Source: a virus (lineage: Duplodnaviria > Heunggongvirae > Uroviricota > Caudoviricetes). Taken from it: DNA of 43,454 nt. The notes under the pieces are model-generated. The model did not search any database. It saw only the letters and a program-made list of their open reading frames with translations, and had not been told where the DNA came from. Shown here in pieces: positions 1,245 through 7,951 of the stretch. The translations under genes and the position numbers were made by a program. Where the stretch lies: the IMG/VR virus record IMGVR_UViG_3300031760_000016, positions 1 through 43,454 of that record; one strand, written 5' to 3'. Within the stretch, counting starts at the first letter, position 1. Each line of letters starts with the position of its first letter.

Positions 1245-2288
1245 AATTAGCTTTATCTAACTGTTCTCGTTCCGAGTAATCGGTTCGCAAAAACACCTAT
1301 TGAATTGCCGGGACACCCCAAGAGCCATATGCGCTACAACGTGGCCATGAAATGGGCGAGCGTGAAAGCGGCGAAAGCAGAAAGAAGCATATGGATGGCA
1401 TACGGTTAAATCCTAAGTGCTGATAAACGGGCAATCGGCAGCCAAGCCTTGAACAGAGGAAGGTTCAACGACTATCCCGCAAGGGAGTACGCTGCAAGCG
1501 ATTGGCAGCGGAAGTGGTAGGCATCCGTATGGGTGAAGATATAGTCTGATCTCTGCCGAACAGGCAGAGGAGCATTATGCTCGCGATGGGGGTAGCGCCC
1601 TACATATATTGCAGTACATGGATTGTAAATGGGTGAGGTGGTTTTATACGGAAGATTTGACAGGTCGCAGATTTGGTCGATGGACAGTGATTAGTCGCGC
1701 AACGGAAATAACAAGACGTCCTGTGTGGAATTGTAAGTGCGATTGTGGCACAGAAAAGAAGGTACGCGGTAGCACCTTAATAAGTGGCGAGTCACAGTCG
1801 TGTGGTTGTCTTCAAAAGGAACAAGTGGGGGACAGGGCGAGAAAACATGGTGGCTTTGGCACGCGGCTATATGCCATACGGAACAGTATGAGGCAGAGAT
1901 GTAACAATCCAAATCATCATGCTTATTCCAATTACGGTGGTCGCGGGATCACGATTTGTGCAGAGTGGGAGGATTATGCCGCATTTAAAGAGTGGGCGAT
2001 TGGTGCCGGCTATGATGAGGATGCGGCTCGCGGTGAATACACACTTGATCGCATTGATGTCGATAAGGGGTATTCGCCAGATAACTGCAGATTCGTTGAT
2101 ATGAGGCAGCAAGCCAATAACCGTCGCGTGACGATAGTCGTAGAACACAATGGAGAAAAACATCCGTTGACTGAGTGGGCTCAGATTCTGGGTGTTGAAT
2201 ATACCACATTGTGGAGGCACTACAAACAAGGTACTTCTGTACTTAATTAAAGTGATAATACTGCAATATAGTATCGTAAACACATGTG
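1245..2288 (+). mobile_element. Group I intron (1044 nt) in the RNA polymerase gene
   Basis: Core motifs present: GAATTGCCGG (1302), GGCAATCGGCAGCC, CAACGACTA (1466-1474), AAGATATAGTC (1536-1546). P7 pairs GACTA/TAGTC. P1 has U1244·G1263 flanked by AGAA/TTCT. Terminal G is 2288. P10 pairs TTTATCTA (1252-1259) with exon TAGATAAA (2293-2300). Splicing gives in-frame QQN|TIDKTKG. Confidence 0.92.
1648..2250 (+). CDS. Intron-encoded HNH-type homing endonuclease (start uncertain: SD-backed ACG 1648, or upstream TTG 1609 / ATG 1618)
   Basis: DLTGRRFGRWTV..WNCKCDCG..SCGC N-terminus, YGGRGITIC, TLDRIDVDKGYSPDNCRF motif. The ORF lies downstream of P7/P9 inside the intron. Confidence 0.85.
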   Translation, partial: TEDLTGRRFGRWTVISRATEITRRPVWNCKCDCGTEKKVRGSTLISGESQSCGCLQKEQVGDRARKHGGFGTRLYAIRNSMRQRCNNPNHHAYSNYGGRGITICAEWEDYAAFKEWAIGAGYDEDAARGEYTLDRIDVDKGYSPDNCRFVDMRQQANNRRVTIVVEHNGEKHPLTEWAQILGVEYTTLWRHYKQGTSVLN

Positions 2289-3137
2289 ACTATAGATAAA
2301 ACCAAGGGAATCATCGCCAAGCCCATGCCCAGATGCTGGCATGACAGGATGGCTTTGCATCGCCCGGACAGTGACGACCCGGAAGAGCTGGCACGGTGGG
2401 AATTGAACTGCCGCATTGTAGCGGACAAGAAGCCGTACTTCATGCGGTACATCTACCCGCAGCTCATGAGGGATTACAACAATTACATAAACACCGCGAA
2501 CGAAAAGGCGTTGAGCGAGCACCGGCTGTCAATTGACGAGATGCTGGCCATGCCGCCTGATGAACTGACCGAGGAACAGCGCACGTGTCTCCGCTATTAC
2601 CAGGCGAAGATGCCGGTGGGGAATCACGACTGTGTGATGAACAGGATCTGCCGCAAGGTGGAGGCTGCGTTTGGTAACGGCATTGCGGAGCCTGATGAGC
2701 CGTTTGACTACACGGTCATGCGGAGTAACATTGGCTATTCGTCCTACACCTATTACGCGGTTGAGCGTTTGTTCAAGCAGTACCTTCAGAAATTGAAGAG
2801 GTTTGCGATGGACAAGAACAACATTGTATCCACGCAGGATGAACCGGTGGATTACCGCGCATCGCTGCTCGCGTTCTTTGTGCGTGAGGTGGCGCTGGTT
2901 TGTAACAACAGTTTCCAGATGGCTGACATCATCCTGGATCTGGCGTACCGGCGTAATGGCACCAAGCAGTTCGCCTGGGATATGGTTTCGCATGAGATCA
3001 TTTATAACCTGCTCATGAGTCGCGGGTGCAAATTGTCCTTTCCGCGTGCTGACCCGGATGGCGACATTGAATTTATGGGTGAGCGGTATTCGATGACGCA
3101 AATGGAGGTGGACGCTGATGGATATTATTCTGAATGA
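2289..3137 (+). CDS. yonO: YonO-like RNA polymerase, exon 2 (282 aa)
   Basis: Continues the frame of exon 1 after intron removal. No SD precedes the GTG at 2286, which is formed by the last three intron bases. Confidence 0.82.
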   Translation, partial: TIDKTKGIIAKPMPRCWHDRMALHRPDSDDPEELARWELNCRIVADKKPYFMRYIYPQLMRDYNNYINTANEKALSEHRLSIDEMLAMPPDELTEEQRTCLRYYQAKMPVGNHDCVMNRICRKVEAAFGNGIAEPDEPFDYTVMRSNIGYSSYTYYAVERLFKQYLQKLKRFAMDKNNIVSTQDEPVDYRASLLAFFVREVALVCNNSFQMADIILDLAYRRNGTKQFAWDMVSHEIIYNLLMSRGCKLSFPRADPDGDIEFMGERYSMTQMEVDADGYYSE

Positions 3138-3864
3138 GCGCAACTGGATGAATGAAGCGCTTGAGACGCTCTCGCTCGGAAAGAATCCGTACGAGACGAT
3201 TGGGCGGTATGCGCGTGTGATGCACGCGGACGGTGTGCCGAAGGACGTGATGGAGCGAAGGATCGAGGAGTTCCTGCTTCGCTGTGACTCACGGGTAAAC
3301 CTGGTCATATGGCAGGATGCCATCAAGAGGGCTATTGCCAGAGCCGGCAAGTACCCCATCGCTGAGGTCGATGGGGTATGGCTCACCGAGGGCGAGCTCA
3401 ACACGATCAGCAAGATTGAGAGCAAGATGCAGCGCAAACTGCTATTCACCCTGGTGTGTCTGGCAAAGTTCAAGATGGCGGTCAATCCGGACGCCGCGGG
3501 CTGGGTGAACTACGGCTACAAGGATATATGTAACCTTGCAAACATAACGATCAGTTCGAAGCGACGTGCGCTGCTGATCAACGACCTGTACCGGGCGGGG
3601 TATATTTCACTGAGCAAGCGGATCGACAACACAAGTATACATATTGACATTCTTGACGACAGTACGACCAACAGCCTGTTTGTGTCGGATTTCCGCAATC
3701 TTGGCAACCGTTATCTGATGCACTGCGGCGAGAAGTTCTTTGAGTGCCAGTCGTGCGGCATTGTCATCCACCGTACAGCCAATCATCAGACGTTCTGCAG
3801 GCAGTGTGCCGAGGACAGACACAGGCAATTGGCGAACGAGCAATACAAGCGGTCAATTGCGTAA
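3118..3864 (+). CDS. Uncharacterised 248-aa protein, probable winged-helix plus C-terminal Zn ribbon
   Basis: SD GGAGGTG upstream, and it overlaps the RNAP stop. Contains a helix-turn-helix/wing-like segment (YKDICNLANITISSKRRALLINDLYRAGYISL) and CQSC…CRQC. Confidence 0.7.
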   Translation: MDIILNERNWMNEALETLSLGKNPYETIGRYARVMHADGVPKDVMERRIEEFLLRCDSRVNLVIWQDAIKRAIARAGKYPIAEVDGVWLTEGELNTISKIESKMQRKLLFTLVCLAKFKMAVNPDAAGWVNYGYKDICNLANITISSKRRALLINDLYRAGYISLSKRIDNTSIHIDILDDSTTNSLFVSDFRNLGNRYLMHCGEKFFECQSCGIVIHRTANHQTFCRQCAEDRHRQLANEQYKRSIA

Positions 3865-3884
3865 TTTCAAAATTCTGCGTTTTG

Positions 3885-3985
3885 AGCACCTCCGAAAGCA
3901 CCGATACCTCCGAGGTTTCAAGGGGGCTGTCAGATTTCTTAATTATGGATAGAAAAGATGATAAAGTGGTGCATTTGGAGGTGTT
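3885..3985 (+). promoter_or_regulatory. Holin leader with anti-Shine-Dalgarno helix
   Basis: AGCACCTCCGAA (3885-3896) can form 12 contiguous pairs (2 G·U) with TTTGGAGGTGTT (3974-3985), which contains the holin SD. A second anti-SD copy, TACCTCCGA, lies at 3905-3913. Confidence 0.5.
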
Positions 3986-3989
3986 GTAC

Positions 3990-4187
3990 ATGACTGATTT
4001 TAAGCGTTGGTTTTCCGCAGCCGGTGTTCGTGCACTGAAGACGTTTGCTCAGAGTGCTGTTGCCGCCATTGGCACGACTGCTACTCTCGGTGGTGTTGAC
4101 TGGAGGCTTGTGGCTTCTACGGCTGCACTGGCTGCTATCCTGTCCCTGCTCACGAGCGTCGCCGGACTGCCTGAGCTGGAGAAATAA
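3990..4187 (+). CDS. Holin, phage r1t-like family (65 aa)
   Basis: SD GGAGGTG then ATG 3990. W..AAGVRALKTFAQ…VDW..V.S…L.S.LTS.AGLPE pattern with two hydrophobic segments. Confidence 0.85.
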   Translation: MTDFKRWFSAAGVRALKTFAQSAVAAIGTTATLGGVDWRLVASTAALAAILSLLTSVAGLPELEK

Positions 4188-4215
4188 GTACTTGTAGAAT
4201 GAAAGGATGATTGAC

Positions 4216-4371
4216 TTGATTCAGGTTTCCAAAGAAGAAATGAAGAAGCTGCGCGAGCGTTTCCCGCATATCCGTGCTACGCGCACTGTACATAAGTACT
4301 ACGTCGATGAGACCACCAAGGTGATGAATTTCCTGAAGAACGGCTGTGGCATGGAGCGCAAGAATGCTTGA
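4216..4371 (+). CDS. Small hypothetical protein (51 aa, LIQVSKEEMKKLRERFP…), absent from the ORF track
   Basis: SD GAAAGGA, TTG start; its TGA stop overlaps the start region of the next gene. Confidence 0.65.
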   Translation: MIQVSKEEMKKLRERFPHIRATRTVHKYYVDETTKVMNFLKNGCGMERKNA

Positions 4372-5554
4372 ACGCATGCCTGAAGAGACCGCCCTTCAAC
4401 ATCATAGGCGGTTGATCAGCGGGAAACTTATCGACGGTACACTGTCCGATATGGACTACTCTGAACTCGCTCCCTATGTCTACGGTAAGGAATACTCCGC
4501 GGATGTTGCCAGACGCATGATGTACGGATCTGCCCGTACCCTGCAGCTGGTAGACGCGGAGCGCGAGGAGTCTATTGAGGACACCGCTATCCTCAGCGAG
4601 CTTGAGCTCAAGAAGATCGAGCTGCGCAAGGAGCAGCAGAAGTTCTTTGATCAGCGCAACGCCTTCAATAAGCTGGTGCGTGATCAGGCCAGAGACGATG
4701 AACTCAAAGAGATCCTTGAACGGGCTGTTGCCTCGGGCAGCATGCCCGTTCTTGATTATACGCCGCATACGGTTGAGGCCACCGGCACGAGTTTGCTGGT
4801 CAGCCTCAACGACATCCACTATGGCGCTCAGTATGACAACTACTGGGGCAAGTATGATTCGGATGTATGCAAACGTATGTTCGGTTTGTATTTGGAGCGC
4901 ATCATTGAGATCGCTCAGACCCACAAAGCGGAGGACTGCTATGTGACCTGTAACGGCGATGCTATCAGCGGCGTGATCCACGCCAGCATTCGCCTGACCA
5001 ACAAGGAGAATGTGATCGAGCAGGTGACCGGAGTGTCAGAACTGATCGCACAGTTCCTTGCCAAGCTGAGTGCTTACTTTGGCAACGTGTATTTCACAAG
5101 CGTCGCCGGCAATCACTCCAGGCTTGATAAGAAGGATGACGCGGTGCTGCAGGAGCGGCTTGATGATTTGGTCGAGTGGTATTTGAAGGCGCGTATGGCG
5201 GCCTTTGAGAACGTGCATGTTGGCTACGGCAATAAGGTTGACTGCACGATGTACCTGCTGGACATCTATGGCAAGAACTACCTGGGCGTACATGGCGATT
5301 TTGAGGCCAGCGTGGGCGGTGTGACCAATCTGCAGGCAATGGTTGGTGTGCCGCTGTACGCCGTCCTGATGGGACACAGGCATCACAACAGCACAGATGT
5401 CGTGCAGGGGATACGCGTCGTTCAGAGCGGCAGCTTCCTTGGCACAGACAACTACTGCATAAGCAAACGTTTGTTCGGTATACCAGAACAGATCGTTTGC
5501 GTGGTTGACAACAAGGGTATACGCTGCCACTACGACGTTGAGTTGAAGCTGTGA
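4364..5554 (+). CDS. Calcineurin-like metallophosphoesterase (SPbeta YonJ-like) with N-terminal coiled coil
   Basis: Motifs DIHYG, NGD, GNH, HGD, GHRHH in the canonical order. Confidence 0.85.
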   Translation: MLERMPEETALQHHRRLISGKLIDGTLSDMDYSELAPYVYGKEYSADVARRMMYGSARTLQLVDAEREESIEDTAILSELELKKIELRKEQQKFFDQRNAFNKLVRDQARDDELKEILERAVASGSMPVLDYTPHTVEATGTSLLVSLNDIHYGAQYDNYWGKYDSDVCKRMFGLYLERIIEIAQTHKAEDCYVTCNGDAISGVIHASIRLTNKENVIEQVTGVSELIAQFLAKLSAYFGNVYFTSVAGNHSRLDKKDDAVLQERLDDLVEWYLKARMAAFENVHVGYGNKVDCTMYLLDIYGKNYLGVHGDFEASVGGVTNLQAMVGVPLYAVLMGHRHHNSTDVVQGIRVVQSGSFLGTDNYCISKRLFGIPEQIVCVVDNKGIRCHYDVELKL

Positions 5555-6611: not shown

Positions 6612-6902
6612 ATGCTGAAGAAAAATGAAATGATTGAGCGGCTCGCTCAGAAGGGCTATACGAAGAAGAACGCTGGTATAATCATGGACGACGTCATGAT
6701 GGTGATTATGGAGGCTCTGGTTGAAGGTGAGGAAGTAATGCTTCATGGCTTCGGCACATTCTCTGTCAAAGAGGTTGCGTCGCGTAGCATGGTTGACCTG
6801 CAGAGTAAGGAGCGCATTGTCATCCCGGGTCACAAGGCACCCAAGTTTGTTCCCGGTGAGCTGCTGAAGCGCTCTGTGCGTGAAGGATTTATCCGCACGT
6901 AA
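6612..6902 (+). CDS. hup: Histone-like DNA-binding protein HU
   Basis: L.GFGTF, IP..KAPKF.PG..LK..V signature, 96 aa. Confidence 0.92.
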   Translation: MLKKNEMIERLAQKGYTKKNAGIIMDDVMMVIMEALVEGEEVMLHGFGTFSVKEVASRSMVDLQSKERIVIPGHKAPKFVPGELLKRSVREGFIRT

Positions 6903-7951
6903 TGCCTAGAGTCAGTAAAGTCAAAAAGATAACTTCGCGGCCAGGTGATGTAAAGCCTGACCGCGAAATGCCAAGTGCGTTCTTTTGTTCGCGATGCGGG
7001 AAGAAGTACAAGAAGCAAGTGGGCAATTTCCCGGCATCGAAGAGCCCGCTCAATAAGGGCAATGGCTACTATATGACCATTTGCAACCATTGCCTTGAAG
7101 ACTTGTTTGACCACTACAAAGCGGCGCTCGGCGGCGACGAAAAGGCTGCCATGCGCCGCATATGTTTGAAGCTGGATATTTACTGGAACGAAGAGATCTA
7201 TGGCCTTGTCAGCCGGACGAACACTAGCGCCTCACGTATAAAGTCGTACATCAGCAGGACGAACCTGGTGAAGTTTACAGGGAAGACGTATGACGATACG
7301 CTGGACGAAGAGAGCATATATCTGCGCCCTGTTAGCATCGAGGAGATGCGTGCCGTCGAGGACGATGAGGACGCGAAGAACGCTGGTCTGCCGACTACAT
7401 CTATAGATGTTGAGACGGTGCTGTTTTGGGGAAGCGGCTTTACTGAGGATAATTATCACGAGCTCAATAACAGGTATGAGTATTGGACGCGTGACTTGCA
7501 GAAGCCTCTGCCCACTGTTGAGGAAGCGCTGTATAAGCAGGTCTGTCTGCAGGAGTTCGTCATCAACCGCAATATTGCTGCCGGCAAGAGTTCACCACAA
7601 GACCAGAAGGCTCTGAGTGAACTGTTGGGCAACTTGAACATCAAGCCTAGCCAGAAGGCCAAGGAGGATGAATCCGCAGAGTTTGAGGAAACGCCGATGG
7701 GCGTGTGGATCAAGCGCTGGGAGGATAAGCTGCCCGTCCCTGAGTATCACGAGAAGGCGGGGGAGAAGTCCCTTATCAAGTACATTACCACTTGGTTCTA
7801 CGGGCATACAGCCAAGTCGCTCGGCATCCGCAATATGTATTCGCAGGTGTATGAGGATGAGATTGAGCGGTACAGGGTGACGAAGCCGGAGTTCGAGGAA
7901 GAGAGCGATGATGACATCCTCGCCGATCTGGTTGGCGGTGATGAAGAGTGA
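6902..7951 (+). CDS. Conserved phage protein (YonG-like position) with N-terminal Cys4 motif; candidate terminase small subunit
   Basis: CSRC…CNHC. Coupled to HU (TAATG overlap) and to terminase (GTGA overlap). Confidence 0.6.
   Translation: MPRVSKVKKITSRPGDVKPDREMPSAFFCSRCGKKYKKQVGNFPASKSPLNKGNGYYMTICNHCLEDLFDHYKAALGGDEKAAMRRICLKLDIYWNEEIYGLVSRTNTSASRIKSYISRTNLVKFTGKTYDDTLDEESIYLRPVSIEEMRAVEDDEDAKNAGLPTTSIDVETVLFWGSGFTEDNYHELNNRYEYWTRDLQKPLPTVEEALYKQVCLQEFVINRNIAAGKSSPQDQKALSELLGNLNIKPSQKAKEDESAEFEETPMGVWIKRWEDKLPVPEYHEKAGEKSLIKYITTWFYGHTAKSLGIRNMYSQVYEDEIERYRVTKPEFEEESDDDILADLVGGDEE

Follow-up and report, generated by a model that had tools for sequence, protein, structure and literature searches.

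Leaders that lock a gene by masking its SD have their precedent in phage T4, in genes e, soc, 49 and I-TevI (PMC3014915). In gene e, the SD is sequestered within a helix of the long early and middle transcripts. The late promoter is placed between the 5′ strand of this helix and the ribosome site, and the late RNA is made without the inhibitory strand. The other system of relevance is the late operon of SPbeta, in which transcription starts upstream of yonK from a promoter, P_YonO, that the authors did not define in sequence (Forrest et al. 2017, PMC5467207). The literature that we searched contained no defined YonO promoter after 2017.

The locus described here resembles both systems. As in T4 gene e, the SD is predicted to be sequestered in a helix of the long transcript, a candidate promoter motif likewise lies between the 5′ strand of this helix and the ribosome site, and the target is a lysis gene that would be harmful if expressed early. 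As in SPbeta, the putative start of the late operon falls after the yonO module and before yonK, and both have the order yonK, yonJ, HU, yonG and terminase. At a probability of about 0.55, we consider it plausible that the leader serves as a combined boundary and switch, which would put a T4 gene-e-type lock on a holin in a new phage lineage.

There are also clear differences. The host of T4 is E. coli, whereas here it is a Firmicute-type gut bacterium, and the gene behind the leader encodes a holin rather than the endolysin of T4 gene e. The late polymerase is probably a phage enzyme of the YonO type, in contrast to the host polymerase with gp55 that serves T4. The anti-SD is duplicated, and the predicted loop of about 60 nt contains the remnant of a terminator-like hairpin together with the promoter-like motif. 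Unlike the present locus, SPbeta produces more than 1 kb of non-coding RNA between the start site and yonK, and no holin follows.

Genomic setting of the leader

The window, that is, the whole stretch of DNA analysed here, corresponds to positions 1–43,454 of an IMG/VR virus record 107,454 nt in length. The sequencing runs that carry this phage are bovine gut metagenomes. Long ORFs, including structural, tail and lysis genes, occupy the + strand to about 55 kb and the − strand beyond. Close relatives by DNA or by single protein were found neither in the phage collection nor in IMG/VR. The features around the leader, in window coordinates, are:

2286–3137: exon 2 of the RNA polymerase gene, its 3′ end overlapped by the 248-aa gene
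3118–3864, + strand: 248-aa gene (phrog_30716), the last of the RNA-polymerase module
3885–3903, + strand: anti-SD arm, assigned by sequence, MFE and centroid folds, duplex energy, and shuffle and genome-wide controls
3885–3929, + strand: weakened local hairpin, a competitor of the long-range helix and the counterpart of the strong terminator-like hairpin of relatives
3906–3913, + strand: second ACCTCCGA copy, a predicted back-up anti-SD that pairs with the SD in leaders lacking the first arm
3923–3956, + strand: promoter-like motif with upstream box GCTGTCAG and core TTAATTATGGATAGAAAA, conserved in more than 50 relatives
3967–3985, + strand: SD arm, with the SD GGAGG at 3977–3981
3990–4187, + strand: holin of 65 aa, r1t family (PF16945 and phrog_443 holin)
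4207–4371: yonK-like small gene, directly after the holin
4346–5554: yonJ-like phosphoesterase gene, after the yonK-like gene

The operon upstream of the leader encodes a YonO-type RNA polymerase (PF05183; phrog_25339, phrog_8308 and phrog_35857). Its gene is interrupted by a group I intron bearing an HNH endonuclease ORF and is followed by the conserved 248-aa partner gene, in line with the RNA polymerase operon of the preliminary description. The stop codon of the 248-aa gene is 20 nt ahead of the anti-SD arm. Homologues of its product, with 35–52% identity, are found in all loci between the YonO-type polymerase and the hairpin-plus-motif element described below. Because it is always encoded between this polymerase and the motif, the 248-aa protein is a candidate specificity factor. 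Four cysteines (C210, C213, C227 and C230) and a DFRNLG block are invariant in the protein of the window and of all relatives.

A spacer of 125 nt separates the RNA-polymerase module from the first late gene. That gene, which begins with the ATG at 3990–3992 and is the first past the promoter-like motif, had been taken for a holin from the start, and the profile match to PF16945 bears this out (54.5 bits against a curated cut-off of 26.9, E 1.3e-14). The yonJ-like gene is followed, in order, by a tyrosine recombinase, HU, a 349-aa gene (6902–7951) and the large terminase. An Rfam scan of the window returned two group I introns only and no known leader RNA. A minus-strand reading of the region was discarded; the ORF at 3764–3991 is without support, and the ACCTCCGA copies, which read GGAGG on that strand, lie more than 40 nt from any − strand start.

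Two endolysin-like genes, with the domain compositions PG_binding_1+SH3_3 and GH25+SH3_3, are located about 50 kb downstream of the holin (genome 52331–55348; L103:11332–14349). Between them, at 53386–53844, is an ORF of 152 aa whose product has a membrane helix at its N terminus as well as a coiled coil and may be a second holin-like protein.

The predicted helix over the holin SD

Positions 3885–3896 read AGCACCTCCGAA and positions 3974–3985 read TTTGGAGGTGTT. As RNA, these two segments form 12 contiguous pairs, 10 Watson–Crick and two G–U, spanning the SD GGAGG at 3977–3981, so that the 12-base pairing over the whole holin SD is present as first described. The helix is longer than first noted. 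Beyond a 1×1 A/A mismatch (3897/3973), GCACCG at 3898–3903 pairs with TGGTGC at 3967–3972. This brings the helix to 18 pairs, with a duplex energy of −30.2 kcal/mol, compared with −16.5 kcal/mol for the competing local hairpin. Both predicted folds of 3865–4010, MFE and centroid, contain it (−42.8 kcal/mol, z −2.63). The predicted cost of freeing the SD arm is 19.8 kcal/mol, and the fold is the same at 39 °C.

The second ACCTCCGA copy at 3906–3913, with its own ACCT/AGGT mini-hairpin, was likewise confirmed in the sequence: ACCT (3906–3909) is able to pair with AGGT (3913–3916) across a 3-nt loop. In leaders that begin at 3897 or 3905, this copy is predicted to replace the first arm at the SD (probability that the SD is unpaired, 0.01–0.05).

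Folding of leaders with different starts predicts that the SD is closed in long RNA and open in short RNA, as had been proposed. The probability that the SD is unpaired is 0.00–0.02 for starts at 3700–3880, stays at 0.01–0.05 for a start at 3905, and is 0.6–0.9 for starts at 3930–3960, the SD being open from starts at or beyond 3930. The short leader itself, 3920–4010, is not more structured than shuffled sequences (z +1.5). In silico, then, the long leader carries a stable helix over the SD of the kind known from T4 gene e.

An 18-bp helix over the SD is unlikely to have arisen by chance. Only one of 3000 dinucleotide shuffles of 3865–3960 attained −30.2 kcal/mol against the fixed SD region. 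Among genomic windows of 96 nt, 14 of 4468 did so, including windows that contain the reverse complement of the region itself. When the upstream 96 nt were paired with the SD region for all 116 SD-bearing gene starts of the 107-kb genome, the holin start came out strongest (z −5.25). The runner-up is a − strand start at genome position 104347 (−25.5 kcal/mol, z −4.0), which may have a leader structure of its own.

A paralogue within the same genome provides a further comparison. Copy b, at genome 92421–92514 on the − strand, is 75% identical to 3867–3947 and is not upstream of the holin. Its flanking blocks are kept and both ACCTCCGA copies are missing. The duplex of copy b with the holin SD region reaches −17.1 kcal/mol, which is the genomic background level. 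Its local hairpin is the stronger of the two, at −25.1 kcal/mol versus −17.6 kcal/mol for the holin-linked copy. Since copy b has neither ACCTCCGA element and pairs at background level, the anti-SD sequences are specific to the holin-linked copy.

The surroundings of copy b have features of their own. About 400 nt after it, to position 92031, are without a convincing ORF before the next − strand gene, reminiscent of the unannotated non-coding RNA that follows P_YonO in SPbeta. Just upstream, at about genome 92540–92560 on the − strand, a strong SD, AAGGAGG, stands 7 nt before an ATG with an immediate TAA, a start-stop mini-ORF. About 240 nt upstream of this second copy of the boundary element, a match to the self-cleaving Twister-P1 ribozyme was found (genome 92749–92817, − strand; L002:1823–1891), scoring 59.1 bits against a gathering threshold of 67.2 (E 4e-12).

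The boundary element and its promoter-like motif

Syntenic loci in public assemblies were reached through homologues of the 248-aa protein, whose alignment led to 80 IMG/VR loci; exact scans of IMG/VR for two conserved blocks of the element gave no match. The study set consists of 56 distinct loci, five further distinct spacers having been excluded as they contained no locatable motif. In most of these relatives, the spacer opens with a strong GC hairpin just after the stop codon, as expected of an intrinsic terminator placed right before a promoter. The z-score of the hairpin is below −2 in 45 of the 56 loci; the sequence varies, while the structure, its GC-richness and its position directly after the stop codon are kept. 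At least five T within the 9 nt after the hairpin occur in 10 of the 56.

The hairpin of the window is different. The 70-nt region upstream of the motif, which holds the hairpin, folds at −17.4 kcal/mol with a z-score of −0.5, compared with medians of −24.7 kcal/mol and −4.3 for the same region in the 56 relatives. A terminator consensus scan of 3865–3990 returned no site, in agreement with the preliminary description, which saw no terminator after 3864. The hairpin has no U-run and is followed by CAGATTTCT, so this spacer lacks the combination of a stable GC-rich hairpin and a U-run that marks an intrinsic terminator. In a further departure from a terminator before a promoter, the 5′ arm of this weak hairpin finds its better partner in the SD. 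Because the hairpin is weakened and without a U-run, read-through is likelier here than in the relatives.

The hairpin is followed, 16–18 nt downstream in more than 50 distinct relatives, by a motif of about 25 nt, again located after the YonO module. It consists of TGTCAG, TGCAG or TTGATG, a gap of 8–9 nt, and cTAT(A/T)ATG.A.GG.AA; the core stretch in the window is TTAATTATGGATAG. The motif occupies 3923–3956 and is thus positioned in the loop of the long-range helix, 3′ of both anti-SD segments and 5′ of the SD arm. We infer a start site at about 3940–3960. A set of 28 non-redundant relatives, without the window's own copies, gave a position matrix that was run over both strands of the 107-kb genome. 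The best match is 3923–3956 (23.5 bits), and copy b shares third place. A − strand match at genome 53970, also among the top three, is probably spurious, since it is antisense within the start of a + strand gene and no − strand gene comes after it.

A sigma-70 scan of 3000–5000 found no promoter, and a reading of the motif as a −35/−10 pair was rejected because the box spacing of 8–9 nt does not fit. The first gene after the motif is a yonK homologue in 38 of the 56 loci, and the motif therefore occupies the position of P_YonO. The window and more than 50 relatives share this placement after the yonO module and at the head of a yonK-led late block. From this position, the YonO-type polymerase would be the enzyme that uses the motif. 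The core also resembles a sigma-A −10 box (TATAAT-like), which makes the host polymerase with a phage factor an alternative.

The likeness to the mapped P_YonO region of SPbeta is weak. The published primer-extension primers bracket its start to a 190-nt stretch (L010 7605–7796). Within it is TCATTTATGAGGGT, a look-alike of the motif core that is kept in Bacillus phage BUCT082. This sequence, with its ATG at L010 7713, scores poorly with the matrix from the gut-phage relatives, at rank 1582 of 268,766. The matrix is not discriminating in the AT-rich SPbeta sequence. A better SPbeta site, of matrix rank 14, is located just upstream of the primer-extension stretch and outside it. An exact scan of the genome contigs for the SPbeta start site (168 genome position 2225998) gave no match.

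Two bovine-gut metatranscriptome libraries from different studies contain the region as assembled contigs. In library one, a 3499-nt RNA contig (depth 9.8) begins at 3974, and a 252-nt contig (depth 2.6) spans 3672–3923, running through the 5′ arm at 3885–3903 and ending at 3923. In library two, a 744-nt contig (depth 4.4) begins at 3960. Neither library has an RNA contig over 3924–3959, a gap from which the absence of read-through RNA cannot be concluded, and the polymerase genes are nearly uncovered in either. The contigs of two DNA runs bridge the whole region. RNA libraries may contain DNA; the uneven cover makes it likely that the contigs are RNA-derived. Contig starts 5–30 nt past the predicted start site are what is expected from short-read assembly of a transcript. 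As a weak but independent hint, the contigs suggest a start of late RNA somewhere in 3924–3960, with most of the upstream RNA ending close to the hairpin. The start site that the preliminary description placed between the two arms is therefore supported in part: the hairpin and motif conserved in more than 50 relatives, the top matrix match at 3923–3956 and the contig starts at 3960 and 3974 all point to it, whereas assembled contigs cannot prove 5′ ends.

A holin occupies the first slot behind the motif in eight of the 56 loci. Two of these holins are of the r1t type (PF16945), and the other six belong to an unrelated type with matches to the LL-H holin family (PF09682), namely L007 (3874–4266), L022 (2384–2767), L033, L064, L014 and L021. 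The match of L007 is above the PF09682 cut-off and that of L022 is below it. The slot immediately after the motif has been filled from two different holin families.

The window is the extreme of the 56 loci, with a pairing z-score of −5.16 and predicted probabilities of an unpaired SD of 0.01 in the long and 0.70 in the short leader. Predicted opening from long to short leader is also seen in L007 (0.12 to 0.78), L064 (0.42 to 0.99) and L033 (0.29 to 0.58), through differing sequences; ATCGCTCCGTT pairs with AACGGAGGGAT in L007, and GACCCCCT with AGGGGGTC in L033. L022 has a 9-bp pairing (z −3.99) between the upstream box of the promoter and the sequence just 5′ of the SD, not over it, and its predicted SD accessibility is unchanged despite this pairing. 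No masking is predicted for L014 and L021. L003, the closest relative with the same holin, has 9 of 10 positions complementary and keeps a strong local hairpin; no masking is predicted for it (0.71 long, 0.71 short).

As a group, the eight holin-first loci have stronger pairing z-scores than the 38 yonK-first loci (Mann–Whitney p 0.018; 0.047 without the window) and greater predicted opening (p 0.043; 0.10 without the window). Weak hairpins are found in five of the eight holin-first loci versus three of the 48 others (Fisher p 0.0007, for loci that are not independent). The loci are phylogenetically related, the p-values therefore overstate independence, and the group statistics are marginal. 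The pattern fits, without proving it, the idea that terminator hairpins were turned into anti-SDs more than once, in loci where the promoter is followed by a holin. Conservation of the pairing, the absence of which would count against the lock according to the preliminary description, is weak, with no more than a trend among the holin-first relatives and no predicted masking in L003. In one relative, L020, a tRNA-like sequence, noticed by eye about 120–200 nt after the stop of the 248-aa homologue, appears to come directly after the motif and before the yonK-like gene.

Rival readings and the proposed switch

The main rival is that the pairing is a by-product without function. The 5′ arm would be that of a decaying ancestral terminator, its C-rich match to the SD would be fortuitous, upstream RNA would end at the hairpin, and the helix would rarely or never form in vivo. 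C-rich arms are indeed general among the relatives, and any such arm is by its nature complementary to a strong SD, which counts against a lock. The local hairpin, forming first during transcription, could also trap the 5′ arm. The upstream RNA contig ends at 3923 with none bridging to 3960, masking is absent in L003, L014 and L021, and equal duplex energy is attained in those 14 of 4468 genomic windows. Against a fortuitous match stand the 6 bp of pairing that continue beyond the 12 flanking the SD, the presence of the anti-SD octamer in two copies, and the absence of both from copy b in the same genome. Moreover, the holin start ranks first of 116, a holin is the gene for which a lock is most sensible, and the weakened hairpin without a U-run makes read-through likelier than in the relatives. 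On balance we regard the by-product reading as unlikely, although it deserves to be taken seriously.

The helix might instead be a processing or decay signal, for example a site for a double-strand-specific RNase, that separates or destroys read-through RNA rather than mainly blocking ribosomes. A nearly perfect duplex of 18 bp is sufficiently long for RNase III-type enzymes, and the RNA contigs break on either side of the loop, at 3923 and at 3960/3974. The upstream contig, however, is intact through the 5′ arm to 3923, and the conserved promoter-like motif is a simpler account of where the downstream contigs start, which leaves processing improbable. Least probable of all, and hardly credible, is a dual-start holin/antiholin in which the ATG at 3945, sharing its frame with the holin ATG at 3990, begins a longer isoform and the structure tunes the balance between the two forms. 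The stretch from 3945 to 3990 contains no stop codon in this frame, a start at 3945 would lengthen the protein by 15 residues (MDRKDDKVVHLEVLY), and the RNA would be leaderless if transcription began at this ATG. Yet no SD precedes 3945, and the ATG belongs to a non-coding motif that is kept in relatives whatever gene follows. In these relatives it opens ORFs of 1–18 codons, the frame in L003 stopping after eight. The dual start was rejected as the main reading, the frame not being kept in relatives.

The switch that we favour can be set out as follows. Comparison shows the ancestral layout, in which the stop codon of the 248-aa gene is immediately followed by a terminator-like hairpin and the motif, 16–18 nt on, heads a block of yonK, yonJ, integrase, HU and terminase. 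Sequence and folding show what differs here: the holin is first after the motif, and the hairpin has been weakened, with its 5′ arm and its loop each carrying ACCTCCGA. In a long read-through RNA, the 5′ arm is predicted to pair over 18 bp with the holin SD region, and the SD would essentially never be free. A short RNA that starts from the motif, at about 3940–3960, would lack both anti-SD segments, leaving its SD open. Holin synthesis, and hence the lysis clock, would begin only when the late promoter fires, most likely through the YonO-type polymerase. The weak hairpin and the anti-SD would together form two layers against early leak.

A broader and more tentative proposal, which we put somewhat below even odds, is that the hairpin and the motif of about 25 nt represent the promoter class of YonO-type single-chain two-barrel RNA polymerases, maybe read together with the 248-aa zinc-ribbon protein. 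In holin-first phages, the terminator hairpin may have been rebuilt as an anti-SD, wiring the lysis clock to the switch from host to phage polymerase. The conserved and precisely placed candidate YonO-type promoter is the most valuable by-product of this analysis and offers a short DNA template and clear mutations for testing. If the lock is real, the T4 strategy of concealing a lysis gene's ribosome site in long early transcripts and uncovering it in late ones arose independently, and it would operate in a large Firmicutes gut phage, on a holin, tied to a phage-encoded non-canonical polymerase.
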